Origin: Escherichia phage L27
Direction: 5' to 3' (one strand)
Sequence record: LC473039.1
DNA length: 64,000 bases
The position numbers and the translations under genes are program-made. Positions 3,562 to 52,197 of this stretch are shown here, one piece after another. Numbering within the stretch: the stretch's first letter is position 1; every line of letters begins with the position of its first letter. The notes below the pieces were generated by a model. The model was given only the letters and a program-made list of their open reading frames with translations, was not told the DNA's origin and ran no database searches.

Positions 3562-3627
3562 ATTACTAATCAACGGGAGGCGATAACCTCCCCACTAAAT
3601 AAAACCCTTAAACTAGGAGATTCAAAA
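3553..3627 (+). promoter_or_regulatory. type 2 cassette copy
   Basis: repeat. Confidence 0.5.
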
Positions 3628-3876
3628 ATGGCAACTATCCGCGCTACTGTTAACGAGTTCGGTTTTTCCTCTCTGGATGTTAAATTTGACATTGCATGCA
3701 CTGATAACGCCTTTGAAATGGTGAAAGGTCTTATCAGTCAGACCATCAAAGATTATAATCCTTCGGATGAGTTCTGGGAGGAAACAAAACAAGAAGTTCT
3801 CAAGGATGGTTATACTTATCACTATTGGGGAGAAAAAATCGTCTCCCTGTACTACAACAAACAAGATTATAACTAA
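3628..3876 (+). CDS. hypothetical early protein (82 aa)
   Basis: ORF after cassette. Confidence 0.6.
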   Translation: MATIRATVNEFGFSSLDVKFDIACTDNAFEMVKGLISQTIKDYNPSDEFWEETKQEVLKDGYTYHYWGEKIVSLYYNKQDYN

Positions 3877-3915
3877 TCGACGCAGCGGGGCTATTTAGCC
3901 CCAGATACCTTCAAA

Positions 3916-6737: not shown

Positions 6738-6962
6738 TTACTCAGACTTTTCAGTCTTCTTATCGGATTTCTTACTAGTCTTCTTCTCAGCTTTCTGCTC
6801 AGGTTCCTTCTCAGAAGTTGCCTTGATAACCATATCAAGAAGCTCTGATAAGTCGCTCTTCAGCAGAGTAACAGGCTGCTCATTGTAGAAGTTTTTGTCA
6901 AGATAAACTTTAAACTCTTCAATAGAAGGGAATCCAAAAATTGGTACAGGTGTCTTAATCAT
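6738..6962 (-). CDS. hypothetical protein (74 aa), Lys/Glu-rich C-terminus
   Basis: ORF. Confidence 0.45.
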   Translation of the reverse strand: MIKTPVPIFGFPSIEEFKVYLDKNFYNEQPVTLLKSDLSELLDMVIKATSEKEPEQKAEKKTSKKSDKKTEKSE

Positions 6963-7038
6963 TACTTAGTTTCTCCATAGGCATCTTTTAAGATTGCCTT
7001 GTTAATCATTTCAGCGATTGCAAAACGAACACATACAG

Positions 7039-7572
7039 CTATAATTGTAGGTTGCATTCTTTACTTACCTCTTCAAGTTTAACCTCAGAATCCTTAAGAC
7101 GTTTCTTATGAACTCTGAATCTCATTAGTGCGATGATGATACCAACTAAAGGGACAGCATACAAGTACCAAACATCATATACCTTTGCAGTAATCTGTGT
7201 AATGGTTAAGTCTTGAGCTATGGAACTGATTGCTGATACTGCCAGTAACATTACTAAGAAGAACGCCAATACTATAACAATACTTAGGCAGCCTCTGGCA
7301 TGGTGTTCATGCTTAATACACTTGTTCTTTTCGTCAACAACCCTGTTGTAGTCGTTTGTAAAGTCTCTGTAGAAAGCTTTCAAGTATTCTTTATTGTAGC
7401 CTTCAAAGCAACCTGTACCGTACCAATAATCACCACCAAAATGTGCTATGATACCGGTATCTCCGTTTGGTTTGGTTACTCTCAAAGAAGTATGATGACG
7501 AGTATCCTGATAATCTATCTTATATCTTTCTTCGTAAATCATTTTCCAACCCCTCTCAATCGTTTGTTCCAC
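7039..7572 (-). CDS. hypothetical membrane protein (177 aa)
   Basis: long hydrophobic stretch (LSIVIVLAFFLVMLLAVSAI...). Confidence 0.55.
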   Translation of the reverse strand: MEQTIERGWKMIYEERYKIDYQDTRHHTSLRVTKPNGDTGIIAHFGGDYWYGTGCFEGYNKEYLKAFYRDFTNDYNRVVDEKNKCIKHEHHARGCLSIVIVLAFFLVMLLAVSAISSIAQDLTITQITAKVYDVWYLYAVPLVGIIIALMRFRVHKKRLKDSEVKLEEVSKECNLQL

Positions 7573-12983: not shown

Positions 12984-13063
12984 TTTTAAAAGGTGTTGAC
13001 AGACTCTACAAAGTTGCTCTAAAGTCTGTCACATCAAACAACAATGAGAGAAGAGAGTAAAAT

Positions 13064-14479
13064 ATGAGCGAGTTATTTAAACATGCGCACCTTCATGCAG
13101 GTCGAACTGAAAATGGTGCTGTAAACCATACTTCATCAATGTCTGCTCTGGTAGACTTCTACAAAGCCGCTGGCTCAAGCCGTAGCAATGTAGAAATCTT
13201 ACCAGACCTGTTCTACAAAGCTTTGCGTGAGGATGTTGATGTTGCAGTTCGTATTTTACTGCATATGCGAGATGTACGAGAAGGTATGGGTGAGCGTAAA
13301 GCTTTCCGAACTGTTTTACTTCAAGCGATTGAAGATAAGGTTTTAGAACCTACACAGGTTCTTCGCATTATGGATAAGATTGCAGAACTTGGTCGTTTTG
13401 ATGACTTCAAAATCTTCGTAGGTACTCGTTTCGAGACAGATGCCTTCAAACATTTAGAAGCAGCATTACTAGACCCTGCAACAGCAGGTTTAGCAGCTAA
13501 GTGGTTGCCACGAGTAAAACCACGCCACAAACAGTTTGTAAAACGTTTCTGTAAGTTTGCAAACTTAAGCGAGAAGGAGTATCGCACACTGCTATCTGCA
13601 CTGTCTGATACGGTTGAGCAAAAAATCTCTGCTAATGAGTTTGGTAAGATTGACTACAGCAAGATTCCTTCACTCGCTGCTGCACGTTACCAAAAGCTCT
13701 TTAACCGTAAAGATGGAGAGCGTTACAAAGCTTACATCGAATCATTATCAAAGGGTGAGGTTAAGATTAATGCTGGTGCTGTTTACCCATATGATGTGAT
13801 TAAATCTATTAAGTATGGTAATGCAGATGTTGCTAATGAGCAGTGGAAAGCACTTCCAAACTGGATGGCAGAAGGTGAAAACATCTTGTGTATGACTGAT
13901 GTTTCAAGCTCAATGTCTTGGGTGAATCTTGGTTCAATCACTGCCCTTGATATTGGTGTATCACTTGCCTTGTATGTAGCAGAACGCAATACAGGTTGCT
14001 TTAAAGATGAGTTAATGGTCTATTCAACAAACCCTCATTTCATTGAACTGAGTGGTGATTTACGAAACCGTCATCGTCAGGTAATGCGTCATGTTGAATA
14101 TGGTTCAACTAACTTACAAGCAGCTTTTGACCGTATTCTTGAGGTAGGTAAGAGAAACAACTTGACTCAGAAAGATATGCCAAGTAAGCTTATTATCTTC
14201 TCTGATATGGAGTTTAATCAGGTTGATGGTGCAAATGGTCGTACAAACTTTGAAGCAATTCAGAGTAAGTACAAAAAAGCTGGATACGAAATGCCACAAC
14301 TAGTATTCTGGTACTTAGCAAACCGTAATGGTACTTGCGAAGTATCTGTTAAGGATAATGGTGTAGCAATGGTATCAGGGTTCTCTCCAGCCACTTTAAA
14401 AGCTCTGCTTGGTGGTGAGAAGTTTGACCCAATCAGTGTAATGCTCAAAGCGGTAATGATTGACCGTTATATCTGGTAA
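13064..14479 (+). CDS. vWA-domain protein with MIDAS-like motif; candidate Ro60/TROVE-like (or DUF2828-like) RNA-binding protein (471 aa)
   Basis: DxSxS motif (DVSSSMS) about residue 280 followed by vWA-like pattern (IIFSDMEFN, VSGFSP); overall architecture resembles Ro60/Rsr as recalled, not searched. Confidence 0.5.
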   Translation: MSELFKHAHLHAGRTENGAVNHTSSMSALVDFYKAAGSSRSNVEILPDLFYKALREDVDVAVRILLHMRDVREGMGERKAFRTVLLQAIEDKVLEPTQVLRIMDKIAELGRFDDFKIFVGTRFETDAFKHLEAALLDPATAGLAAKWLPRVKPRHKQFVKRFCKFANLSEKEYRTLLSALSDTVEQKISANEFGKIDYSKIPSLAAARYQKLFNRKDGERYKAYIESLSKGEVKINAGAVYPYDVIKSIKYGNADVANEQWKALPNWMAEGENILCMTDVSSSMSWVNLGSITALDIGVSLALYVAERNTGCFKDELMVYSTNPHFIELSGDLRNRHRQVMRHVEYGSTNLQAAFDRILEVGKRNNLTQKDMPSKLIIFSDMEFNQVDGANGRTNFEAIQSKYKKAGYEMPQLVFWYLANRNGTCEVSVKDNGVAMVSGFSPATLKALLGGEKFDPISVMLKAVMIDRYIW

Positions 14480-14497: not shown

Positions 14498-14526
14498 TTG
14501 ACAATGTGTTTGATACCCTTTAATAT
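14498..14526 (+). promoter_or_regulatory. strong sigma70-like promoter (TTGACA-17-TAATAT) upstream of tRNA cluster
   Basis: consensus -35, 17-nt spacer, near-consensus -10. Confidence 0.7.
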
Positions 14527-14644
14527 GTTCTACATAGAAACGAAACGAGAGCTTTTCTAAGATACTGAAAAATATTTTAAAAAAGTTCTTGACAATCACT
14601 AAAAAATAATGTTAAAGTGGTTACATAGAGTTTGAAAAGTTTAT

Positions 14645-14721
14645 CTCTGTTTAGCTCAGCTTGGTAGAGCGTTCCGTTTGGGGCGGTAAGGCCGGAGGTT
14701 CAAGTCCTCCAACAGAGACCA
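14645..14721 (+). tRNA. tRNA-Pro (anticodon TGG)
   Basis: hand-folded cloverleaf; 7-bp acceptor ctctgtt/aacagag, T-loop ttcaagt, CCA encoded. Confidence 0.7.
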
Positions 14722-14728
14722 AATTAAT

Positions 14729-14806
14729 GTTCCAGTAGACAAAATGGTATAGTCACCACTCTTTCAAAGTGGATATTTGAGGGTTCAAATCCCTTCTGGA
14801 ACGCCA
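14729..14806 (+). tRNA. tRNA-Glu (anticodon TTC)
   Basis: acceptor gttccag/ctggaac, anticodon loop ctttcaa, CCA encoded. Confidence 0.7.
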
Positions 14807-14810
14807 GTTT

Positions 14811-14889
14811 TGACAGAAGACCAATTACAGCAAACTTAATCTTATTCATCTGAAGGTAAATCGGACAAAGAAGAGACTTGGTCTGGTCA
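14811..14889 (+). ncRNA. structured RNA-like element A (Y-RNA-like family)
   Basis: terminal helix tgac/gtca + AGAA/UG internal loop + GACCAA/TTGGTC helix; conserved 'tacagcaa' box. Confidence 0.5.
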
Positions 14890-14898
14890 TTAAGAATT

Positions 14899-14975
14899 GC
14901 GGGTATAGAGAAAGGGCGTCTCACATGTCTCATTAGCATGGTATCGGCAGGTTCGACTCCTGCACCCGCCTCCAA
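14899..14975 (+). tRNA. tRNA-Met-like (anticodon CAT), 1:72 unpaired
   Basis: anticodon loop ctcatta, T-arm gcagg/ttcgact/cctgc, CCA encoded; first acceptor pair mismatched. Confidence 0.6.
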
Positions 14976-14978
14976 ATT

Positions 14979-15049
14979 TACAGAAGACCGTTTACAGCAA
15001 AATTGAATGAAATTTTTAGCGGAAAAATTGAAAGATACGGTCTGGTAAT
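14979..15049 (+). ncRNA. structured RNA-like element B (Y-RNA-like family)
   Basis: terminal helix ttac/gtaa + AGAA/UG loop + GACCGT/ACGGTC helix. Confidence 0.5.
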
Positions 15050-15058
15050 ACTAAACAT

Positions 15059-15132
15059 GGTTAGGAAGCACATAAGGTATGTGCGGTCGCCTGTTAAGCG
15101 AATGGCACAGGGTTCGAATCCCTGACTAACCG
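15059..15132 (+). tRNA. tRNA-Asn (anticodon GTT)
   Basis: T-arm caggg/ttcgaat/ccctg, anticodon loop ctgttaa; CCA not encoded. Confidence 0.65.
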
Positions 15133-15144
15133 CAAAATTTAAAT

Positions 15145-15232
15145 GTGTCGTTATCCCGTAGATGGTAGCGGTGGGGACTGTAAATCCCTTGTCATTGAGA
15201 CTCGGTAGGTTCGACTCCTACACGGCACACCA
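15145..15232 (+). tRNA. tRNA-Tyr (anticodon GTA), long variable arm
   Basis: anticodon stem-loop gggga/ctgtaaa/tccct, T-arm gtagg/ttcgact/cctac, acceptor gtgtcgt/acggcac. Confidence 0.65.
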
Positions 15233-15254
15233 ACACTTAGCGAGATACTTAGTT

Positions 15255-15683
15255 ATGAGAGATGAAGTATACAAATCACAACTTGGTATGAGTTTGGGAA
15301 CTGCACAAAACAGACTAGTAAAAGATTTGCTATTCGATTTTATATGTAAGACAAATCAAAATAGATGTTTTCAGTGCGGAAAAGAAATGACTAGGGATGA
15401 TTTCTCTATCGAGCATAAGATTCCGTGGAGACATAGTGAGAATGCAAAAGAGCTTTTCTTTTCACTAGATAATATTTCTTATAGTCATCTTAAATGTAAC
15501 ATGAAAGCAGCAAGACCAGCACAGATAAGTGAAAGAAAACATAAAACAATTAAACACGGAACTGCGTATAGTTATTTTAAAGGCTGTAGATGCGATGAGT
15601 GTAGGTTGGCTAAGAATGCTGAGAGTAGAAGAAACTATAGTCCAGAAAGACGTAGGAAGAAGTATCTAAGAAATGGCACATGA
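15255..15683 (+). CDS. HNH homing endonuclease (142 aa)
   Basis: CFQCG...SIEHKIPW...N...H..CN HNH motif; basic C-terminus; embedded in tRNA cluster. Confidence 0.75.
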   Translation: MRDEVYKSQLGMSLGTAQNRLVKDLLFDFICKTNQNRCFQCGKEMTRDDFSIEHKIPWRHSENAKELFFSLDNISYSHLKCNMKAARPAQISERKHKTIKHGTAYSYFKGCRCDECRLAKNAESRRNYSPERRRKKYLRNGT

Positions 15684-15687
15684 ATTT

Positions 15688-15763
15688 GGGGTATTAGTTT
15701 AGACGGGTAAAATACGGGATTGTCTCTCCTGAGCCGCGAGTTCGATTCTCGCATACCTCGCCA
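15688..15763 (+). tRNA. tRNA-Asp (anticodon GTC)
   Basis: acceptor ggggtat/atacctc, anticodon loop ttgtctc, CCA encoded. Confidence 0.75.
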
Positions 15764-15821
15764 ATTTTGAGAGGGCTATTTAGCCCCTCCCTTAAAGGGT
15801 TCTTACGAGTATCTTTTAAAG

Positions 15822-15903
15822 GAGCAGAAGACCAAATACAGCAAGAACGTATGAAAATTTCAAGCCAATTTAATTTTGAAAAATTTAAAACTTGGTCTGG
15901 CTC
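15822..15903 (+). ncRNA. structured RNA-like element C (Y-RNA-like family)
   Basis: terminal helix gagc/gctc + AGAA/UG loop + GACCAA/TTGGTC helix. Confidence 0.5.
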
Positions 15904-15910
15904 AACAAAT

Positions 15911-16047
15911 TTACAGAAGACCGTTTACAGCAAAACTTAAACAATCTATTTCTCGGTAAAGAAAAGGCGAAGGTTCGATTCCTTCACTCGGCAGATGTCG
16001 AGTTGGTGTAATGGTAGCACTTAAGATGATAAACAACGGTCTGGTAA
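15911..16047 (+). ncRNA. structured RNA-like element D with circularly permuted tRNA-like module (candidate YrlA-type Y RNA)
   Basis: same terminal helices as A-C; interior has T-arm gaagg/ttcgatt/ccttc, then acceptor-3' actcggc, 4-nt linker, acceptor-5' gtcgagt (7-bp complement) and D-arm gtgt/aatggta/gcac. Confidence 0.5.
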
Positions 16048-16189
16048 TTATCTTTGTAGATAAGTTATTAAGCTTACCTGTGAGTATGCGACCACAAAGG
16101 GTGAAAGGGTAAATTCTAGATTTAAACCCAACAAGGCACATCGCTACAGACCTTAAGCAAGTCTGGGTAGCTTATCTACAAAGATAATT
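16046..16189 (+). ncRNA. structured element F bounded by a 19-bp perfect inverted repeat
   Basis: aattatctttgtagataag (16046-16064) is the exact reverse complement of 16171-16189; about 106-nt interior with internal hairpins. Confidence 0.45.
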
Positions 16190-16193
16190 TAAT

Positions 16194-16269
16194 GGAAGTG
16201 TAGCAGAATGGTGATGCGGTAGACTTTTAATCTGACAGGCGATGGGTTCGAATCCCTCCACTTCTACCA
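16194..16269 (+). tRNA. tRNA-Lys (anticodon TTT), atypical T-stem
   Basis: acceptor ggaagtg/cacttct, anticodon loop cttttaa; T-stem has A.C and U.U mismatches. Confidence 0.55.
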
Positions 16270-16273
16270 AAAT

Positions 16274-16350
16274 GGTTCAGTCGCAGATAAGGTAATGCAA
16301 GGGTCTCATAAGCCCTATGAATGTGGGTTCGATTCCCATCTGAACCTCCA
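16274..16350 (+). tRNA. tRNA-Met or Ile2 (anticodon CAT)
   Basis: acceptor ggttcag/ctgaacc perfect, anticodon loop ctcataa, CCA encoded. Confidence 0.7.
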
Positions 16351-16367
16351 ATTTATAGGTGATACTT

Positions 16368-16853
16368 ATGATTTGTGCCAACAAAGATTGCAGAAATGAA
16401 GCCGTTAAAGGTGGAAAATTTTGCTCACGCTCTTGTTCTGCAAAAGTGAACAACAAGAAACACCCAAAGAGAAGTCAGGAAGGCTCTTGCCATTCATGCG
16501 GAAAGGTAACGCCAAAAGCGAGAAAATACTGTGACGAATGTATTGCAGGTGGAGTCATGAAAAAACATAAGACCCATCATGAAAAAAGCAAAGCCAAATC
16601 ACTGCACGTTAAAAAGTCTCGTGACAGACTGAAGAAGGCTTTAGTTGATTACAAGGGTGGTTGTTGTTCAATTTGTGGTTACAATAGGTGCATAAAGGCT
16701 CTAGAGTTTCACCACTTAGACCCTAAGACAAAAGACTTCACAGTAAGTAAAAAACACTACTCACTGGCTACAATGCAGTCTGAAGTTGATAAGTGTGTCT
16801 TGCTTTGTGCAAATTGCCACAGAGAAGTACACGAAGGGGTAACAATGCTGTGA
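16368..16853 (+). CDS. HNH homing endonuclease (161 aa), Cys-rich N-terminus
   Basis: CSICGYN...LEFHHLDP...CANCHREVH HNH motif; stop codon lies inside the first bases of tRNA-Ile. Confidence 0.75.
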   Translation: MICANKDCRNEAVKGGKFCSRSCSAKVNNKKHPKRSQEGSCHSCGKVTPKARKYCDECIAGGVMKKHKTHHEKSKAKSLHVKKSRDRLKKALVDYKGGCCSICGYNRCIKALEFHHLDPKTKDFTVSKKHYSLATMQSEVDKCVLLCANCHREVHEGVTML

Positions 16854-16922
16854 AAGCACATATGGATGTGCATTCGGCTGATAACCGAAAGGCAGAAGGT
16901 TCAAATCCTTCTCACAGTACCA
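16847..16922 (+). tRNA. tRNA-Ile (anticodon GAT)
   Basis: clean cloverleaf: D-stem gcac/gtgc, anticodon stem ttcgg/ccgaa, T-stem gaagg/ccttc, CCA encoded. Confidence 0.8.
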
Positions 16923-16937
16923 ATTTCAATAAAGTTG

Positions 16938-16966
16938 TTGACATTGAGATGTGACTACTTTATAGT
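16938..16966 (+). promoter_or_regulatory. sigma70-like promoter (TTGACA-17-TATAGT) inside tRNA cluster
   Basis: consensus -35 and good -10 with 17-nt spacer. Confidence 0.65.
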
Positions 16967-17170
16967 AACCTTAGTTTTCGTTGCGTAGCGTCTATTTTGC
17001 AAATTTAAAATAAATGCAAACGACAATGTTTTTCTGGCAGTAGCTTGATAGGCTAAACACCAGTGAGGTCTTCCAATCCCTCATCAAAGAATTTGGCGTA
17101 CTCGCCCACGGTATGATTAATAAGGTGGGCATCTTTAAGGGCTTTCTAAGAGAGTCTTTAAAGATAATTA

Positions 17171-17252
17171 CGGGGCGTATCTCAGCGGTCTTCTAAACCG
17201 CCGTTAACCGAGTAAGTGGAGTATGCGGGTTCGAGTCCTGCCGCCTCGACCA
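17171..17252 (+). tRNA. aberrant tRNA-like gene (possible anticodon TCT), D-arm missing or unrecognisable
   Basis: good T-arm and 7-bp acceptor (cggggcg/cgcctcg) with CCA; stem-loop gcggt/cttctaa/accgc; only about 7 nt where the D-arm should be. Confidence 0.4.
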
Positions 17253-17395
17253 ATTTAGTTAGCAGATTACTTAGACGACCTAAGCGGGTCTTCCTGTAGG
17301 GAGGTGGTCTGTATCTCATGTTTTCCAGAACATGTAAATAATCTGAGAAGGGGCTTTACAGTGTTGAGATAATACGGTAAGCTTCGAATTATAGT

Positions 17396-17478
17396 ATGGG
17401 ACGATGTTAAGACTCTAAGGCATGAGCAACGGCTTCCAACACCGTTTCAAAGGGGTTCAACTCCTCCGTCCCATGCCA
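17396..17478 (+). tRNA. tRNA-Trp-like (anticodon CCA) with about 8-nt insertion before D-stem
   Basis: perfect 7-bp acceptor atgggac/gtcccat, anticodon loop ttccaac, T-loop ttcaact, CCA encoded; expanded D region. Confidence 0.45.
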
Positions 17479-17491
17479 AAGTCTTATTAGG

Positions 17492-17581
17492 GGTAGGTAG
17501 CGGCTAATGGTAGCCAAACAGTCTTGAAAACTGTTGCCACTGTAGAGATACGGTGAGGGTTCGACTCCTTTACTTACCGCC
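17492..17581 (+). tRNA. tRNA-Ser (anticodon TGA), long variable arm
   Basis: anticodon stem acagt/actgt perfect, loop cttgaaa, 20-nt variable arm. Confidence 0.75.
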
Positions 17582-17735
17582 TAATAAGATTTTACACCGT
17601 CCATGCTTGCTCGCATTTTCGGTTTATCCCTCGTGTATTGTCGTACACTGATAAAGCACCTAGTAGGTGTCACGGAGAAGAGATAATATCAAGCTCTCCA
17701 AAGGTTCTAGTCACCGGATTAAACAAGACTATGCA

Positions 17736-17758
17736 AAGACCAAATTAGGTCTTTTTAG
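17736..17758 (+). terminator. terminator-like hairpin with T-run inside tRNA cluster
   Basis: aagacc-aaatta-ggtctt followed by TTTTT. Confidence 0.45.
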
Positions 17759-17835
17759 AGGGCTTCTAAGGTTATTACAGCTTGTTGTGGAACCTTGTTG
17801 CTTAGGTTCTTAGAAGTTCTCTAAAAAGATTTAAT

Positions 17836-17913
17836 GGGAGATTGACGGTAATTGGTAAACCTATCTCGCTTAGAACGAGATGTTTGAGGGTTCGAATCCC
17901 TTGTCTCCTACCA
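17836..17913 (+). tRNA. tRNA with Leu-type anticodon TAG but short variable arm
   Basis: anticodon stem tctcg/cgaga, loop cttagaa, T-arm gaggg/ttcgaat/ccctt, CCA encoded. Confidence 0.55.
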
Positions 17914-17920
17914 AATTAAT

Positions 17921-17996
17921 GCAGGTGTAGCAAAATGGTTATGCGGCTGACTCTTAATCAGTAAGACGATGGGTTCAATTCCCTCCACCTGTACCA
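17921..17996 (+). tRNA. tRNA-Lys (anticodon CTT), atypical T-stem
   Basis: anticodon stem gctga/tcagt, loop ctcttaa; same unusual T-stem as the TTT Lys tRNA. Confidence 0.55.
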
Positions 17997-18002
17997 GACA
18001 TT

Positions 18003-18078
18003 GGGGATGTAGTTTACATGGTTAAAACATAAGTTTTGCAAACTTAAGTACAGGGTTCAATTCCCTGCTTCTCCACCA
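18003..18078 (+). tRNA. tRNA-Ala (anticodon TGC)
   Basis: G3.U70 wobble pair present; D-stem gttt/aaac, anticodon stem taagt/actta perfect. Confidence 0.8.
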
Positions 18079-18084
18079 ATTAGT

Positions 18085-18159
18085 GCATCCATAGTTTAAA
18101 CGGGAAAATTGCAGTCTTCCAAACTGAGGTTGAGGGTTCGATTCCCTCTGGATGCTCCA
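18085..18159 (+). tRNA. tRNA-Gly (anticodon TCC)
   Basis: perfect acceptor gcatcca/tggatgc, T-arm gaggg/ttcgatt/ccctc. Confidence 0.75.
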
Positions 18160-18165
18160 AATAAA

Positions 18166-18242
18166 GCTGCTTTCGTATAATTGGCTATTACACATCCCTT
18201 GTAAGGATGGAAATGCAGGTTCGAGTCCTGTGAGCAGCACCA
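18166..18242 (+). tRNA. tRNA-Thr (anticodon TGT)
   Basis: anticodon stem catcc/ggatg perfect, loop cttgtaa, CCA encoded. Confidence 0.75.
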
Positions 18243-18245
18243 ATT

Positions 18246-18333
18246 CAGAGGTCAAGTGAAAGACCGCTGGTGTCAACTGAAGACCGTAACAAATTCCACG
18301 GAGTTGAGTTAGCGGCACAACTTCAGACCTCTT
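18246..18333 (+). ncRNA. structured RNA-like element E (truncated family member with nested helices)
   Basis: outer helix agaggtc/gacctct; inner mini-element 18275-18307 has caac/gttg + ccgt/acgg helices and 'gaagaccgt' box. Confidence 0.4.
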
Positions 18334-18337
18334 TCAC

Positions 18338-18412
18338 ACTCGCTTAGTTTATATGGTAAAACATCACCCTTACAAGATGAAGAAAAAGGTTCAAGTCCTT
18401 TAGTGAGTACCA
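18338..18412 (+). tRNA. tRNA-Val (anticodon TAC)
   Basis: D-stem gttt/aaac, anticodon loop cttacaa, T-arm aaagg/ttcaagt/ccttt. Confidence 0.7.
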
Positions 18413-18413
18413 T

Positions 18414-18491
18414 GTTCCAGTATCCCAATTGGCAGAGGATGCAAGCTCAAACCTTGTATTAGTGACGGTTCGAATCCGTCTTGGAACACCA
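18414..18491 (+). tRNA. tRNA with Leu-type anticodon CAA but short variable arm
   Basis: anticodon stem gcaag/cttgt, loop ctcaaac, T-arm gacgg/ttcgaat/ccgtc perfect. Confidence 0.55.
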
Positions 18492-18510
18492 ATTTTAAGA
18501 GGCTATTTAG

Positions 18511-19068
18511 ATGAGATATTTGAAGTATGCTTCATGGATTTTCCTAGCTTTACTAGAGCCATTTGCAGCAACCCTAGCAGTCATCTTAGCACCTTTCGTA
18601 GTCCCATTCTACAGTGAGAAGAAAGGGCATCTACCTTTTGGATTCAGATGGATGGAGACCTATGACAACCCGATTGATGGTGATGAAGGCCACGTTAAAA
18701 GATGGGCTAAGATTAGAAAGATTGGTAAGCTGGGTGTCTACATGCAGAGAGTTGGGTGGCTCTGGAGAAACAAAGCTTATAACTTCTCTTACCATGTATT
18801 AGGAAGAGATGTAAAAGATGTTACTAAGTGGAAAGGTAATATCAACGTAAGTTCTAACCCTGAAGATAATCAAACAGGTTATCTCCTAATGTGGAACAGA
18901 AATGCTTGGGGTTTATTTGCTTTTATCCCATCAATTAAAGTCTTTGGTAAACAGTTTTACTGGAGAATTTATATTGGATGGAAACTAAAAAGTGTTGTCC
19001 CAGAAGAAAGAGCATTCTCAAGGGAAAGAGTTATGTTGGCATTCTTTATTCATCCACTGAGAAAGTAA
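18511..19068 (+). CDS. hypothetical membrane protein (185 aa) inside tRNA cluster
   Basis: N-terminal hydrophobic segment (WIFLALLEPFAATLAVILAPFVVPF); ORF between tRNA genes. Confidence 0.55.
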   Translation: MRYLKYASWIFLALLEPFAATLAVILAPFVVPFYSEKKGHLPFGFRWMETYDNPIDGDEGHVKRWAKIRKIGKLGVYMQRVGWLWRNKAYNFSYHVLGRDVKDVTKWKGNINVSSNPEDNQTGYLLMWNRNAWGLFAFIPSIKVFGKQFYWRIYIGWKLKSVVPEERAFSRERVMLAFFIHPLRK

Positions 19069-19076
19069 AGATTTAA

Positions 19077-19152
19077 AGGGGATTAGTTTACAAGGTTAAA
19101 ACCTCGGTCTTTGAAATCGAAGAAGTTGGTTCAATTCCAACATCCCCCGCCA
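19077..19152 (+). tRNA. tRNA-Gln (anticodon TTG), A1.C72 mismatch
   Basis: anticodon loop ctttgaa, T-arm gttgg/ttcaatt/ccaac perfect. Confidence 0.65.
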
Positions 19153-19154
19153 AT

Positions 19155-19233
19155 GCTCCATTACTCCAATTGGCAGAGAGGCCAGACTTAAAATCTGTGT
19201 TATGTATCGGTTCGAATCCGATATGGAGTACCA
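19155..19233 (+). tRNA. tRNA with Leu-type anticodon TAA but short variable arm
   Basis: anticodon loop cttaaaa, T-arm atcgg/ttcgaat/ccgat perfect. Confidence 0.55.
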
Positions 19234-19238
19234 AATTT

Positions 19239-19314
19239 AGCGGTATAGCATAACTGGCAATGCAGCAGTCTCTGAAGCTGTCCTATTAAGGTTCAAATCC
19301 TTATGCCGCTGCCA
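19239..19314 (+). tRNA. tRNA-Gln (anticodon CTG)
   Basis: anticodon stem gcagt/gctgt (two G.U), loop ctctgaa, T-arm taagg/ttcaaat/cctta. Confidence 0.7.
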
Positions 19315-19345
19315 CTTCTAAGGGTTCTTACGAGAGTCCTTAAAT

Positions 19346-19421
19346 GTGGCCTTATCATAAATGGTAATGACCCATGCTGTGAACATGGTCTATACGGGTT
19401 CAAATCCCGTAGGTCACCCCA
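19346..19421 (+). tRNA. tRNA-His (anticodon GTG)
   Basis: D-stem tcat/atga, anticodon stem ccatg/catgg perfect, T-arm acggg/ttcaaat/cccgt perfect. Confidence 0.8.
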
Positions 19422-19426
19422 ATTTA

Positions 19427-19502
19427 TAGTCCAAGTAGCTTATATGGTAAAGCGCGTGTCTGAAAAACATGAGAAGAGGGTTCAAATCCCACTGGACTAC
19501 CA
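19427..19502 (+). tRNA. tRNA-Phe (anticodon GAA), boundaries approximate
   Basis: D-stem gctt/aagc, anticodon loop ctgaaaa; acceptor tagtcca/tggacta. Confidence 0.6.
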
Positions 19503-19518
19503 ATTTCAAAGGTGCTTA

Positions 19519-20253
19519 ATGAAAGAGATGACAGAACAAGGTAAGGAGATTTTTAATCTCTTAAAAACCGGTAAAGGGTTTTCTAACCCACTTATTACTG
19601 GTGCAGCAGTTCTCGGTGGAACCGTAGCTGCCTCTACATCACTTGTAAACTCTATTAGTTCTGTAACAGACCCTACAATGAAGGATAAACTTGTTGCTGC
19701 TGGACTTACAACAGTCCTTCTAAACAGCTTTACAACAAGCCTTACAAGCACTACAGCAACTACTAAGACCCTAACAGACTACGGTCAAAAGTCTATTGAT
19801 GAGTTTTCATCACGTATGCAGGTAGCAAAGGGATACTCCAATGTTATGGGTGCAGCAGGAGAACAAGTTGGTTGTACACCATTCAGTGGTATTATGGGTG
19901 TTGCTACAGAGTATGGTCAAAAAGCTATTGACACGATTAACAGTACACTGGATAGTGTTAATGATGTGTTAAGTGACTTACAAGATGCTATTGATAAGGG
20001 TCTTGATACTGTTTCTGATTTAGCTAACCAAGCTGTAAGTAAAATTAATGAAGGTATTTCAAAGATTACAGCTTATGCAGATGAAGTTGTGCAGATGATT
20101 GAAGAAGAAGCTGCACTTATTGCAGAGTACCTTAAAACGAATATCAATGGGTTCTTAGCAGGTATCTTACCAGACTGGTTTGATGATGCTTGCAAAACTG
20201 GTGTAATTGACACTATTGCAACACCAGAAATGAAGAACGCATTACAGAAATAA
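19519..20253 (+). CDS. hypothetical Ser/Thr-rich protein (about 245 aa) inside tRNA cluster
   Basis: ORF from ATG at 19519; the upstream part of the track ORF overlaps tRNA genes and is discounted. Confidence 0.5.
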   Translation: MKEMTEQGKEIFNLLKTGKGFSNPLITGAAVLGGTVAASTSLVNSISSVTDPTMKDKLVAAGLTTVLLNSFTTSLTSTTATTKTLTDYGQKSIDEFSSRMQVAKGYSNVMGAAGEQVGCTPFSGIMGVATEYGQKAIDTINSTLDSVNDVLSDLQDAIDKGLDTVSDLANQAVSKINEGISKITAYADEVVQMIEEEAALIAEYLKTNINGFLAGILPDWFDDACKTGVIDTIATPEMKNALQK

Positions 20254-20254
20254 T

Positions 20255-20347
20255 GGAAGATTAACCCTAAAAGGTAAGGGAGCAGTTTGCTAAACTGCCA
20301 GTAGCTGAGAAATCGGTGTACCAGTTCAAGTCTGGTATCTTCCTCCA
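20255..20347 (+). tRNA. tRNA-Ser (anticodon GCT), long variable arm
   Basis: perfect acceptor ggaagat/atcttcc, anticodon stem gcagt/actgc, 21-nt variable arm. Confidence 0.8.
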
Positions 20348-20351
20348 ATTT

Positions 20352-20427
20352 GAATCCGTGACAGAAATGGCTATGTGCCTGTCTGCAAAACAGGTTTATA
20401 AGGGTTCGAGTCCCTTCGGATTCTCCA
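20352..20427 (+). tRNA. tRNA-Cys (anticodon GCA)
   Basis: perfect acceptor gaatccg/cggattc, anticodon stem cctgt/acagg. Confidence 0.8.
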
Positions 20428-24800: not shown

Positions 24801-26147
24801 ATGAGTTCGAATATCTTCAGACTTGCTGATAGATTATTCAACCAACCTTTACTAGCCACTGAATCATTAGCTCACTCAGCAGCAACTTATGTGAATAACA
24901 GATTGCTGGGTGATGTCCAAGCAGCAGTAAACTTTGATAAACCCAAAGGTGAAGCAAGAAGTCTTTTAAAAGTAAAAGATGATATTGCTATTATCCCTAT
25001 TATGGGTGGTTTAACCCATCGTATGACATTCATTGATGCAATGTGTACTGGTGGTTTAAGCTCTTATGAAGGTTTACGTAGAGGCTTTGACGAAGCTTTA
25101 GCAGATGAGTCAATCAAGACTATTGTTCTGCATATTGATTCTGGTGGTGGTGAAGCTTCAGGTTGCTTTGAATTAGCACGTCACATTATGGCTTCAAGAG
25201 GCCAAAAGAAAATTATTGCTTATGTAGATGAGTTCGCTTGTTCCGCTGCATATGCTCTTGCATCTTCTGCTGAAGAAATTATTGCATCACCAGATGCAGA
25301 TGTTGGTTCTATCGGTGTAATCATGGTTCATCAGGAATTAACTAAGGCATTTGAAAAGAATGGCGTGACAATTAACGTCATCAAAGCTGGTGAGTTTAAA
25401 GGTATGGGTTCACCATTCCAAGCACTTTCAGAAGAAAGCAAAGAAAGACTTCAAAAGAGAATTAATGATACCTACGCAACCTTTACAGGTTTTGTAGCTG
25501 AATCTCGTAATCTCTCTGAAGAAGCTGTAAAGAATACTGAGGCGAATGTTTATTCTGCTCAGGAAGCTCTTGAACTTGGTTTAATTAACTCAATCATGTC
25601 TCAAGATGATTTCTTAAATTACTTACAAGGTTCTGAAGAGGCTCCTGTAAGTTTAAACGTTAACAATTCAGGTGAAGAAATGACTGAACAAGAAAAGCAA
25701 GAACTAGAAGCTTTGCGTCTTCAGGTTGCTCAAATGAAAGCTAAAGAACAGGAAGCTGCTTTGTCAGATTTGACTAATAAGATTTCTGCTTCTGCTGAAG
25801 CTTTTGGATTTGATGCAAAAGAAGCTGCAACGACTATTTTAGGTGCTGGTCTTGATAACCCTCTGAGTGTTCTGTTTATGAATGCTATGGAAGGTGCTAA
25901 CCAGAAACTTAATGAAACTATCGCGTCCCACGCTTCTGCAATGGAAGAAAAAGAATCAGAAATTACCAAGCTGAAAGAAACTGCTGGTGCTGTTCTTGAA
26001 CATTCCAACGCTATGGAAGAAATGGGTAATGACGGCGAAGCTGATTTGGTTGAAGAAGAAAAAGAACCAGCTAAGAATGCTTCCGAAGACACCGCTGAAC
26101 AACGCAAACTGGCTCTCCAGAATGCTCTAAAATCTCTTATCAAATAA
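24801..26147 (+). CDS. prohead protease (S49/SppA-like) fused to scaffold-like coiled-coil region
   Basis: N-terminal S49-type peptidase pattern; C-terminal Glu/Ala/Lys-rich helical region. Confidence 0.75.
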   Translation: MSSNIFRLADRLFNQPLLATESLAHSAATYVNNRLLGDVQAAVNFDKPKGEARSLLKVKDDIAIIPIMGGLTHRMTFIDAMCTGGLSSYEGLRRGFDEALADESIKTIVLHIDSGGGEASGCFELARHIMASRGQKKIIAYVDEFACSAAYALASSAEEIIASPDADVGSIGVIMVHQELTKAFEKNGVTINVIKAGEFKGMGSPFQALSEESKERLQKRINDTYATFTGFVAESRNLSEEAVKNTEANVYSAQEALELGLINSIMSQDDFLNYLQGSEEAPVSLNVNNSGEEMTEQEKQELEALRLQVAQMKAKEQEAALSDLTNKISASAEAFGFDAKEAATTILGAGLDNPLSVLFMNAMEGANQKLNETIASHASAMEEKESEITKLKETAGAVLEHSNAMEEMGNDGEADLVEEEKEPAKNASEDTAEQRKLALQNALKSLIK

Positions 26148-26158
26148 GGAACACAATA

Positions 26159-26536
26159 ATGGCATATCAAGGTTTTACTAAGTTAGGTAAAAGAGAACCT
26201 CTGAATGATATCATTCTTTGGGAACAGGTTACCCCAACAGGCCACTCTCGTAAAGAGTACACTCCACAGGCATCTACAGAATATCGTGTAGGTGAAGTTC
26301 TGAAAGCAGATGGTACTAAAGTTGCAGCAGGGGAAGAAGCTCAGGCTGATTCTGTATGTATCGTTAACTTCTATGCAGACCTACAACTGTCTTACCACGG
26401 TCAGTTGAAAGTTGTTGGTATTTACCGTGATGCAGAACTAAAAGACCTGCTTACTCTTGAGTCAGGTGTTGATGCTGCCGCAGTCAAGAAAGCTCTGGCT
26501 GCTAAAGGCATTGATTTCGTACCAACTGGCCTGTAA
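26159..26536 (+). CDS. putative head decoration protein (125 aa)
   Basis: small ORF between protease/scaffold and major capsid genes; by position only. Confidence 0.45.
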   Translation: MAYQGFTKLGKREPLNDIILWEQVTPTGHSRKEYTPQASTEYRVGEVLKADGTKVAAGEEAQADSVCIVNFYADLQLSYHGQLKVVGIYRDAELKDLLTLESGVDAAAVKKALAAKGIDFVPTGL

Positions 26537-26569
26537 TAACAATAATAAGACATTCTGGAGAATTTTACA

Positions 26570-27673
26570 ATGTTGACTAATTCTGAAAAAAGCAGATTTT
26601 TCCTTGCTGACCTGACTGGTGAAGTCCAGTCTATCCCAAATACTTATGGGTATATTTCCAACTTAGGTCTGTTCCGTTCAGCACCAATCACCCAAACTAC
26701 TTTCCTTATGGACTTGACTGATTGGGATGTTAGCTTGCTTGATGCGGTAGACCGTGATAGCCGTAAAGCAGAGACTAGCGCACCTGAGCGTGTTCGTCAA
26801 ATCAGCTTCCCAATGATGTACTTCAAAGAAGTTGAAAGCATCACTCCTGATGAAATTCAGGGTGTACGTCAGCCAGGCACTGCAAACGAACTGACTACTG
26901 AAGCAGTAGTACGTGCTAAGAAGCTGATGAAGATTCGTACCAAGTTCGATATTACTCGTGAGTTCCTGTTTATGCAAGCTCTGAAGGGTAAAGTTGTTGA
27001 TGCTCGTGGTACTCTGTACGCTGACCTGTACAAGCAGTTCGACGTTGAGAAGAAGACTGTTTACTTCGACCTTGACAACCCTAACGCTGACATCGACGCT
27101 TCTATTGAAGAACTGCGTATGCACATGGAAGACGAAGCTAAGACTGGCACTGTAATCAACGGTGAAGAAATTCACGTAGTTGTTGACCGTGTGTTCTTCA
27201 GCAAACTGGTTAAGCATCCTAAGATTCGTGACGCTTATCTTGCACAGCAGACTCCGCTGGCTTGGCAACAGATTACTGGTTCTCTGAGAACTGGTGGTAC
27301 TGACGGTGTTCAGGCTCACATGAACACTTTCTACTACGGTGGTGTTAAGTTTGTCCAGTACAACGGTAAGTTCAAAGACAAGCGTGGTAAGGTTCACACT
27401 CTGGTGAGCATTGACAGCGTAGCAGACACTGTTGGTGTTGGTCATGCTTTCCCTAACGTTTCTATGCTGGGTGAAGCAAACAACATCTTCGAAGTTGCAT
27501 ATGGTCCATGTCCTAAGATGGGTTATGCAAATACACTTGGTCAGGAACTGTACGTATTCGAATACGAAAAAGACCGTGACGAAGGTATTGACTTTGAAGC
27601 TCACTCTTACATGCTGCCATACTGTACTCGTCCTCAGTTGCTGGTAGATGTTCGTGCTGACGCCAAAGACTAA
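26570..27673 (+). CDS. major capsid protein
   Basis: 367-aa ORF with strong RBS and high-expression codon usage, downstream of protease. Confidence 0.7.
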   Translation: MLTNSEKSRFFLADLTGEVQSIPNTYGYISNLGLFRSAPITQTTFLMDLTDWDVSLLDAVDRDSRKAETSAPERVRQISFPMMYFKEVESITPDEIQGVRQPGTANELTTEAVVRAKKLMKIRTKFDITREFLFMQALKGKVVDARGTLYADLYKQFDVEKKTVYFDLDNPNADIDASIEELRMHMEDEAKTGTVINGEEIHVVVDRVFFSKLVKHPKIRDAYLAQQTPLAWQQITGSLRTGGTDGVQAHMNTFYYGGVKFVQYNGKFKDKRGKVHTLVSIDSVADTVGVGHAFPNVSMLGEANNIFEVAYGPCPKMGYANTLGQELYVFEYEKDRDEGIDFEAHSYMLPYCTRPQLLVDVRADAKD

Positions 27674-51929: not shown

Positions 51930-52197
51930 CATCTGGTCAATACACTCGCAAGGTGTACCAGTTCTCTTATGAACTTCTCCGCATTTCTACGGAGTGTCGG
52001 ACTATATCACGTAGTAGTAATACTACCGTTGCACTTGGGAATGGTCATTAGCTTACCACCCTACTCTACTCAGTTCATACATTAAGTACGCTTTTCGATA
52101 GTCTCTGAACGTTCCTCTTAAGAGGCTTCGCTGCTGATTACCATATCTTTACAGACTTAGGCTTCCAGCAATTCACAACGTTTTACATGCGCCACTG
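51930..52197 (-). mobile_element. group I intron (268 nt, ORF-less) in DNA polymerase gene
   Basis: conserved P (tgctggaagc), Q (aatcagcag), R (gttcagagactatc), S (gatatagtcc) elements in correct order; P1 with U.G at 5' splice site; terminal G before exon 2. Confidence 0.8.

Follow-up and report, generated by a model that had tools for sequence, protein, structure and literature searches.

A candidate YrlA-like Y RNA with a circularly permuted tRNA-like module near a Ro60-fold gene of Escherichia phage L27

Element D is a putative small RNA located between the tRNA-Asp and tRNA-Lys genes of Escherichia phage L27 (LC473039.1), within the 64,000-nt stretch of DNA analysed here (the window). 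The window belongs to a Felix O1-type myovirus (Felixounavirus, Ounavirinae). Judged by its sequence, predicted fold and distribution, element D is probably a phage-encoded YrlA-like Y RNA, a tRNA mimic belonging to a divergent Ro60 clade. The strongest support for the YrlA reading is a neighbouring gene, the product of which is predicted to adopt the Ro60 fold. The features are collected in Table 1.

The ends of element D coincide exactly with the outer base pairs of helix P0. Starting at the 5′ terminus the RNA forms the first strand of P0, passes an AGA/G internal loop that separates P0 from P1 in the predicted folds, and then continues as the 5′ strand of P1, on which P0 stacks. It leaves P1 directly as the UACAGCAA motif. 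The distal part is a four-way junction comprising the V hairpin, the T arm, the closed acceptor stem and the D arm, and both the minimum free energy (MFE) and the centroid folds place the T, acceptor and D helices nested inside P1 and P0. A preliminary description of this DNA had recognized a T arm, an acceptor 3′ strand, a 4-nt linker, the matching acceptor 5′ strand and a D arm, enclosed by conserved terminal helices. All of these parts lie where it had placed them, the 7 bp acceptor stem includes a single G.U pair (G15991.U15998) as claimed, and the folds contain each of the proposed helices, the capped acceptor stem among them; P0 and P1 are both present in the folds, and P1 covaries across phages. 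A further helix derived from the cloverleaf, P2 (CUUA/UAAG, 15936–15939 with 16022–16025), was considered and dropped, being unsupported by the SUSP2 and HP1 type sequences.

The loops of element D retain the bases that are invariant in tRNA. UUCGAUU with its G–C closing pair supplies U54, U55, C56, R57, A58 and G53–C61, AAUGGUA supplies A14, G18, G19 and A21, and U16004 gives the linker its initial U. The tRNA-invariant loop bases and this U are likewise present in 12 of 12 related modules, for which the scanner itself required A14 and GG. The T arm precedes the D arm and the acceptor stem is capped by a loop, from which it had been argued that this is not a normal tRNA gene; in agreement, neither ARAGORN nor the Rfam tRNA model calls a tRNA in 15764–16193, and the partial match to the tRNA model within element D is confined to the T arm (14.9 bits). 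There is no anticodon loop, the anticodon side being the open-ended P1/P0 helix. Ten modules that were re-permuted by computer gave no tRNA calls with ARAGORN, likely because a long extended helix replaces the anticodon arm, and this outcome carries no weight. Two ordinary tRNA halves had also been excluded, and this holds: the acceptor strands match no two neighbouring tRNAs and covary with each other. No tmRNA was found by ARAGORN, by Rfam over the whole window at gathering thresholds, or by Rfam over 15750–16200 at E ≤ 10, these two Rfam scans returning only tRNAs, a group I intron and chance-level matches.

The folding energy of element D is only moderately unusual (z = −2.0 to −2.35). Since the energy of D alone is thus unremarkable (z about −2), the case rests on comparison with other phages. 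The region 14600–16400 is 96–99% identical in many Escherichia and Salmonella Felixounavirus phages. Among nine distinct Ounavirinae sequences of element D all of the pair cells (212/212) are standard pairs, and three pairs of the acceptor stem change on both sides, this stem taking three forms (ACUCGGC/GUCGAGU, ACACGU/GCGUGU and ACCCUUC/GAAGGGU). The UACAGCAA motif of D is invariant in all the Ounavirinae copies. The copies differ by 2-nt indels among the genera, and no open reading frame (ORF) over element D is conserved on either strand across the Ounavirinae genera compared.

Three sibling elements, A, B and C, are grouped with D in the repeat families D8 and D20 of the window, and all four are conserved in Felixounavirus, Suspvirus and Mooglevirus. 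Common to them are P0, the AGA/G loop, a P1 of the form AGACCNN/NNGGUCU, and an unpaired (U/A)UACAGCAA(A/G) directly after the 5′ strand of P1. P0 covaries among the four elements (UGAC/GUCA, UUAC/GUAA and GAGC/GCUC), as do the inner pairs of P1 (AA/UU versus GU/AC). The tRNA-like insert is found in element D only.

The comparison was extended beyond the Ounavirinae to 80 IMG/VR loci and several GenBank loci (given L numbers; L004 and L005 are phages HP1 and Mijalis, L090 is Listeria phage cka15 and L096 is Bas63). A covariance model, R1, was built from the Ounavirinae copies of D only. Its matches include L055 and L023 (E = 1e-11), Archie (1.5e-8) and LeBron (1.5e-5), and 41 of 43 lie on the same strand as the gene for a homologue of the Ro60-fold protein (the protein strand). 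Within the window R1 finds D, B (E = 8.7e-6) and A (E = 2e-4) only. In the 14 strong matches 97.8% of the cells are paired and 20 of 24 pairs have a compensatory change, compared with about 40% paired in a slid-partner control; the alignment was fitted to R1, and hence leans towards the structure. The compensatory changes across phages fall in P1 (7/8 pairs), the T arm (4/5) and the acceptor stem (7/7), and the motif of the unrelated phages occupies the position equivalent to that in D. The secondary structure predicted for element D is thereby confirmed, each helix being supported by covariation across distant phages apart from the V hairpin, which is weakly supported because it is not conserved in HP1 and Mijalis.

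Homologues of the Ro60-fold protein occur in 709 phage records, with hosts that include Escherichia, Salmonella, Vibrio, Aeromonas, Campylobacter, Listeria, Staphylococcus, Enterococcus, Bacillus and Mycobacterium; those of cluster L mycobacteriophages are annotated ‘Ro-like RNA binding protein’. A strict scanner for a T arm, closed hairpin and D arm gave 29 matches, all on the protein strand. After removal of artefacts arising from tandem tRNAs, true T–acceptor–D modules were left in L023, L030, L034, L048 and L055, each enclosed by a terminal helix with a UACAGCAA-like sequence after it. A second scanner, requiring a helix followed by CAGCAA, was applied to 69 non-Ounavirinae loci having a homologue. 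Its matches there numbered 71 for the protein strand, against 12 for the opposite strand and 10–24 in shuffled sequences. With L090 added (70 loci), 58 of 74 protein-strand matches lie within 600 nt of the gene, often as two to five in tandem; the background elsewhere in the window is about one match per 18 kb per strand. The elements of LeBron, Archie and L023 have no adjacent tRNA array, from which it follows that they track the protein gene and not tRNA arrays, and in Listeria and Campylobacter phages they are upstream of the gene. LMSP-25 has an RtcB-type ‘tRNA-splicing ligase’ at a distance of 1.3 kb downstream, also on the same strand, an arrangement that echoes the bacterial rsr–yrlA–rtcBA order.

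The protein itself (the product of 13064–14479) was modelled with AlphaFold2 using 44 homologues, giving a mean predicted local distance difference test score (pLDDT) of 88.5 and a predicted template modelling score (pTM) of 0.88. The model has a HEAT-repeat ring and a C-terminal vWA domain with a metal-ion-dependent adhesion site (MIDAS), and so has the predicted form of a Ro60 protein. The top 11 Foldseek matches in the PDB are all full-length Ro60-type proteins (Ro60, Rsr or phage Ro60; E = 1e-8 to 1e-6, TM score 0.5–0.63). They include 1yvr, 1yvp, 2i91, 2nvo, 9kop and 9l5y, drawn from Xenopus and human Ro60, Deinococcus Rsr and the Ro60 of Thermus phage phiLo; the matches that come after them cover the vWA domain only. 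The MIDAS-type DxSxS...T...D residues D279, S281, S283, T349 and D381 are invariant in the 44 homologues. The likeness comes from fold comparison alone, the sequence searches having failed: TROVE (PF05731) and vWA_Ro60 (PF25045) are absent from the product at E ≤ 10, where only DUF2828 and DUF7788 are found; a PDB sequence search gave nothing significant, a PDB profile search gave Ro60 at E about 1 only and in the vWA region, and an NCBIfam search returned no match. Mentions of DUF2828 in the literature searched concern plants or a tardigrade genome only, so the family is also eukaryotic, and an unrecognized eukaryotic paralogue of Ro60 within it is a possibility.

The L27 protein is 98% identical to gp130 of phage Bas63 (bas63_0130), which occupies the same genomic position. 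Bas63 gp130 is reported to be structurally Ro60-like and to be required for normal plaquing on a host with the Ppl defence (2024 PhageMaP preprint, PMC11482910), and on its own to suffice to rescue T7 on the Ppl host (PMC11482910). The authors of that work conjectured that Y RNAs could be present among the annotated tRNA genes downstream, some of these genes being Y RNA genes in fact (PMC11482910), whereas the candidates described here are unannotated elements between the tRNAs. The Bas63 orthologue of D is at 82,777–82,908 of record MZ501086 (L096 5278–5409, plus strand).

A similar suspicion has been expressed for a Listeria phage. The gene CKA15_055, which belongs to the same DUF2828/DUF7788 family, lies downstream of tRNA genes and of unannotated, very abundant RNAs, in which the authors of that work suspected Y RNAs with no defined sequence or structure, and its product was detected in purified virions (PMC12282133). 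Directly upstream of CKA15_055 there are three tandem helix+ACAGCAA elements with a TTGACA-type promoter (L090 2262–2526, corresponding to 25,289–25,553), and L088 likewise has three in tandem (3621–3885) upstream of its DUF2828 homologue. The CKA15_055 elements have no T–acceptor–D module, unlike element D.

In YrlA RNAs an anticodon-side stem is followed by the V hairpin, the T stem-loop, a closed acceptor stem-loop, a UA linker and the D stem-loop (Chen et al. 2014, PMC4201824; bioRxiv 10.1101/312249). They carry a GNCGAA(N0–1)G motif near the 5′ end, presumed to contact Ro60, and were recognized in part by their location within 4 kb of a Ro60 orthologue on the same strand (PMC4201824). Element D has the same order of parts as the YrlA family (RF02553; Salmonella Typhimurium and others), including the two-nucleotide linker starting with U, and shares with it the terminal stem formed by the RNA ends, the conserved single-stranded motif next to the 5′ strand, and the tRNA-invariant bases of the T and D loops. 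It lies 1.43 kb downstream of its Ro60-like gene on the same strand, that gene being assigned to Ro60 by predicted fold and not by Pfam TROVE. The two differ in the motif, which is UUACAGCAA in D and GNCGAA(N)G in YrlA; in the protein partner, DUF2828+DUF7788 for the putative partner of D as against TROVE+vWA_Ro60 for YrlA; and in setting, since D, unlike YrlA, stands within a phage tRNA array beside three siblings that have no tRNA-like module.

Several observations weigh against regarding D as a YrlA RNA working with its neighbouring protein. RF02553 gives no match to element D at its gathering threshold (69 bits), nor at E ≤ 10 over 15750–16200. The GNCGAA motif is absent from the 5′ module of D, which reads CAGAAGACCGUUUACAGCAAAA, with UUACAGCAA at the equivalent position. 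The Levitt-pair positions are A15 and C48, neither G:C nor A:U, and the linker between the acceptor stem and D arm is UG in place of the conserved UA. The strict helix+CAGCAA scanner was negative in 27 of the 70 loci, so the linkage to the protein gene is frequent but perhaps not universal. Of the abundant RNA in the Listeria phage, the single region for which coordinates are published (26,236–26,727) is further upstream and does not coincide with the elements found there. Lastly, gp130 alone, supplied on a plasmid or in T7 devoid of the Bas63 RNAs, restores plaquing on the Ppl host (PMC11482910); because it suffices in T7 the RNAs are not obligatory, and could be at most modulators of the anti-Ppl phenotype. 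The sole GGCGAAG, at the V/T junction (15967–15973), was considered as the YrlA motif and rejected, since its position does not fit and HP1/Mijalis, L008 and L015 have lost it.

Relatives in other phages form intermediates between D and YrlA. As a positive control, mycobacteriophage Bxz1 has a protein, gp220, that carries TROVE and vWA_Ro60, and RF02553 finds the YrlA upstream at 32.5 bits; in this RNA GCCGAGAG/GCCGAAGG follows directly after the terminal helix, the same position as that of the UACAGCAA motif in D. RF02553 also matches DUF2828-linked modules in L034 (41.4 bits), LeBron (39.8), L023 (38.2) and L030 (35.8), with E from 1e-5 to 4e-4. These four scores are below the gathering threshold and at least as high as that of the canonical Bxz1 YrlA, and the alignments are carried by the T–acceptor–D core, not by the 5′ motif. 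The Levitt pair and the UA linker are both present in LeBron and Archie (A:U) and in L023c, L034 and L030 (G:C). RF02553 does not match D of the window, HP1, L055 or L048, which have D stems of the GUGU/GCAC type, and R1 does not recover the Bxz1 YrlA. D is thus linked to YrlA through intermediates; it has the YrlA architecture and context, and lies outside the curated family by sequence criteria. The likeness to YrlA put forward in the preliminary description is supported by the architecture and, independently of that description, by the nearby Ro60-fold gene; the motif, UA linker, Levitt pair and RF02553 score do not agree with it.

The window also resembles the Thermus phage phiLo system, where a phage Ro60-fold protein has adjacent small RNAs, Yrl1 and Yrl2, built as stem, bulge and motif (PMC12135203). 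The phiLo RNAs differ from D in having a CGAA motif, no reported tRNA-like domain and a position upstream of the gene (PMC12135203). RNA binding and the tethering of PNPase were shown experimentally for phiLo (PMC12135203), while for the elements of the window protein binding is proposed.

The acceptor end is variable. Among the 12 modules the acceptor loop is 3–6 nt in seven, none of which encodes CCA (0/7), and at least 8 nt in five, where N-CCA directly follows the 3′ strand in four (4/5); by chance, any one sequence would read CCA at a given position with a probability of 1 in 64. This suggests that some members of the family are opened to expose a CCA end. Moreover, L048 has two unpermuted tRNA-like RNAs (6895–7015 and 7025–7137) with an open acceptor stem and encoded CCA, adjoining its permuted copy, and in these a hairpin CAAACU-GACA-AGUUUG, with UAUUCAGCA after it, takes the place of the anticodon arm. 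In the YrlA of Mycobacterium smegmatis, which has a 7 bp stem, RNase P cleaves and CCA is added (PMC4201824), with which the long-loop N-CCA and L048 versions fit; compared with it, D keeps the 7 bp stem and has a 4-nt loop with no encoded CCA. In the tRNA-Ile/tRNA-Arg gap of Citrobacter phage HP1 (L004 2947–3187) the permuted-tmRNA and alpha-tmRNA models score 29.9 and 20.8 bits, below threshold.

The order T arm, acceptor 3′ strand, linker, acceptor 5′ strand and D arm is also that of the permuted tRNA genes of Cyanidioschyzon merolae and of two-piece permuted tmRNA, the precursors of which are circularized or cleaved into a functional adaptor that has an anticodon loop or carries a tag reading frame. 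Both of these are missing from element D, although the gene order is alike. That D might itself be a true permuted or split tRNA or tmRNA-like gene, giving rise to an aminoacylatable adaptor, could be argued from the N-CCA placed exactly after the 3′ strand in its long-loop relatives and from the unpermuted L048 versions. We regard it as very unlikely given that D has a short loop and no CCA, and that ARAGORN and Rfam give no tmRNA there; nor, to our knowledge, is the bulge-helix-bulge splicing machinery of the algal permuted tRNAs found in bacteria. Decayed tRNA debris, formed when a deletion fused a tRNA 3′ half with the 5′ half of the tRNA that follows, would account for the location of D inside a tRNA array and for the resemblance of its T arm to that of the phage tRNA-Ile, GAAGGUUCAAAUCCUUC (repeat D4). 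Debris would hardly be expected to have complementary acceptor strands that covary through three wholly different sequences, or a module always nested in P1 with its motif, conserved in three genera and recurring in unrelated phages, and this origin is highly improbable. A small minus-strand protein gene can scarcely be the explanation. A 76-aa ORF starting with ATG is present (15911–16141, minus strand) and hypothetical coding sequences (CDSs) are annotated there in several records, such as bas63_0137 in Bas63, but the frame is broken in SUSP2, Sf13, HP1 and Mijalis, the copies differ by 2-nt indels, and the substitutions are compensatory for RNA helices. In Bas63 the minus-strand hypothetical CDSs bas63_0137 (L096 5249–5401) and bas63_0138 (L096 5413–5523) overlie the orthologue of D and the hairpin that follows it; to judge from the sequence, both are probably mis-annotations.

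Two further explanations accept the elements as RNA structures and dispense with a free Y RNA or with the protein. Elements A to D could be units repeated in tandem for the processing or punctuation of the tRNA operon. They would then act as entry sites for RNase P, RNase E or RNase III or as spacers, would assist the maturation of adjacent tRNAs, and would be unrelated to the Ro60-like protein. A and B do occupy the gaps between consecutive tRNAs tightly, with just 4–11 nt spare to the tRNA ends, and a 7 bp acceptor stem is the main determinant for RNase P, which cuts M. smegmatis YrlA (PMC4201824). This is nonetheless unlikely, because elements flank the protein gene in phages with no tRNA nearby or lie upstream of it (above), the other inter-tRNA spacers of the window contain none, and a constant CAGCAA beside variable helices suggests a sequence-specific ligand. 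The helix+CAGCAA units might alternatively be cis-acting operators, bound by the Ro60-like protein to control either its own mRNA or the transcript of the tRNAs. Many loci have them within 300 nt of the gene, where they would resemble a 5′-UTR (untranslated region) element when upstream or a 3′-UTR element when downstream. An operator is quite unlikely to be the answer in view of the arrays of two to five copies on either side of the gene, the promoter-like sites and mature tRNAs that stand between elements and gene in the window, and the elaborate tRNA-like domain in one copy per array, for which an operator would have no need.

If element D is a YrlA-like Y RNA, its life might proceed as follows. 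It would be transcribed with the tRNA array, downstream of the Ro60-like gene and on the same strand, from the putative TTGACA-type promoters at 14498 and 14589. Its layout suggests that A to D would be released by the enzymes that mature tRNA, RNase P cutting where the following tRNA begins and the preceding tRNA being trimmed at its 3′ end, and that the P0/P1 helices would protect the new ends. The ends would pair as P0 and P1, in keeping with the covariation, leaving UUACAGCAA unpaired next to P1; D would then be a tRNA with an open anticodon end and a closed acceptor, and by analogy with the YrlA crystal structure it may be L-shaped. From the co-occurrence of RNA and protein, and the positional equivalence to GNCGAA, P1 with the CAGCAA motif is the putative dock for the 13064–14479 protein. 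More speculatively, the tRNA-like module could offer a tRNA elbow to a tRNA-recognizing factor, candidates being PNPase (as in RYPER), RNase P, the CCA-adding enzyme, modification enzymes, an RNA ligase or a tRNA-directed defence nuclease, and the RNA might serve to tether the Ro60-like protein, in the way that Y RNAs tether Ro60 to effectors, or to gate it; in Bas63 this protein acts against Ppl.

A broader proposal, tentative and on balance doubtful, is that the DUF2828/DUF7788 proteins and the helix+CAGCAA RNAs make up a distinct and widespread class of phage ribonucleoprotein, in which the RNA would serve counter-defence, against Ppl for instance, in the role of tRNA decoy or adaptor. The tRNA-like subunit of this class would take topologies that can convert into one another: with a closed acceptor, with an N-CCA loop opened by RNase P, or unpermuted, with the anticodon arm replaced by a protein-binding hairpin.

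The concept of YrlA, the Ro60 of phiLo with its Y-like RNAs, the fold and phenotype of gp130, and the suspicion of Y RNAs in a Listeria phage (PMC12282133) were already known. In the literature searched, neither these inter-tRNA elements nor the CAGCAA motif nor the distribution of the elements is described, though RNAs of the LeBron type may have been mentioned earlier, possibly among the 22 phage YrlAs of Chen et al. (2014); in Rfam 15 no family matches the elements. Searching the literature for transcriptomes of Felixounavirus brought up nothing of use. The present analysis provides Bas63 gp130, a validated and transferable counter to Ppl, with named candidate RNA partners, four in Felix O1-type phages of which one is a tRNA mimic, and proposes P1 with ACAGCAA as the likely docking motif. 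Phages of enterobacteria, vibrios, Campylobacter, Listeria and mycobacteria show the same RNA–protein pairing. This makes the RNA partners and the action of phage Ro60-like proteins directly testable. The analysis also extends the idea of YrlA to a second clade of proteins, for which the recognition motif differs, points to an RNA family that Rfam lacks, and flags as probably mis-annotated the ‘hypothetical proteins’ that overlie such RNAs.

Table 1. Positions of element D, its parts and related features (window numbering, except for the N-CCA modules, which are numbered within their loci)
Feature	Position	Strand	Description or basis
Element D	15911–16047	+	Y-RNA-like RNA with circularly permuted tRNA-like module; sequence, folds, covariation
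P0	15911–15914 with 16044–16047	+	4 bp, UUAC/GUAA; MFE and centroid folds
P1	15918–15925 with 16035–16042	+	8 bp, AGACCGUU with AACGGUCU; MFE and centroid folds
UACAGCAA motif	15926–15933	+	Predicted single-stranded, directly 3′ of the P1 5′ strand; candidate protein-binding site
V hairpin	15945–15967	+	Variable-arm-like, 5′ of T arm; MFE and centroid folds
T arm	15969–15985	+	GAAGG-UUCGAUU-CCUUC; sequence, Rfam tRNA model positions 43–63
Acceptor 3′ strand	15986–15992	+	ACUCGGC; sequence
Acceptor loop	15993–15996	+	AGAU (4 nt); sequence
Acceptor 5′ strand	15997–16003	+	GUCGAGU; closed stem of 7 bp with one G.U
Linker	16004–16005	+	U16004 (U8 equivalent), G16005; before D arm
D arm	16006–16020	+	GUGU-AAUGGUA-GCAC; sequence
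Element A	14811–14889	+	P0 UGAC/GUCA, AGA/G loop, P1 AGACCAA/UUGGUCU, UUACAGCAA motif, small hairpin; between tRNA-Glu and tRNA-Met
Element B	14978–15048	+	P0/P1/UUACAGCAA layout as in A; between tRNA-Met and tRNA-Asn
Element C	15822–15903	+	P0 GAGC/GCUC, P1 AGACCAA/UUGGUCU, AUACAGCAA motif; repeat and fold analysis
Gene for Ro60-fold protein (predicted)	13064–14479	+	471 aa; Pfam DUF2828+DUF7788, PHROG 850 ‘RNA-binding protein’; 1.43 kb upstream of D, same strand
Promoter-like site	12996–13025	+	TTGACA-18-TAAAGT; before Ro60-like gene; consensus scan only
Two promoter-like sites	14498–14526, 14589–14618	+	Between Ro60-like gene and first tRNA; consensus scan, direct repeat D19
tRNA-Asp	15688–15763	+	Nearest tRNA 5′ of D
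tRNA-Lys	16194–16269	+	Nearest tRNA 3′ of D
N-CCA modules, HP1/Mijalis D	L004/L005		G-CCA
N-CCA modules, L023	4377–4509, 4751–4881		G-CCA, C-CCA
N-CCA module, L048	7154–7288		A-CCA

The tRNA array of the window comprises 24 tRNAs on the plus strand (14645–20427; ARAGORN and Rfam), with the large terminase gene just downstream, and its first tRNA begins 166 nt after the end of the Ro60-like ORF. The sites at 12996, 14498 and 14589 are promoter-like matches to the consensus, and thus putative promoters, the first having the same hexamers as that at 14589. At 17171–17249 (plus strand) Rfam calls a tRNA (31.7 bits) where ARAGORN calls none; related phages have tRNA-Arg(TCT) there. Two HNH homing-endonuclease ORFs (15162–15683 and 16359–16853, plus strand) are inserted within the array, and the first overlaps an ARAGORN call of tRNA-Tyr (15145–15232). 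A group I intron (51977–52209, minus strand; RF00028, 64.9 bits) abuts the minus-strand ORF 52157–54340.

Directly 3′ of element D, and overlapping its P0 by 2 nt, the sequence can form a further hairpin (16046–16189, plus strand), in which a near-perfect stem of 22–24 bp surrounds a branched interior of about 100 nt. It matches no Rfam family and is conserved in Felixounavirus, not in Suspvirus or Mooglevirus. Its MFE is −48.3 kcal/mol (z = −5.66), and it contains an inner hairpin, CAGACC-UUAAGCAA-GUCUGG.

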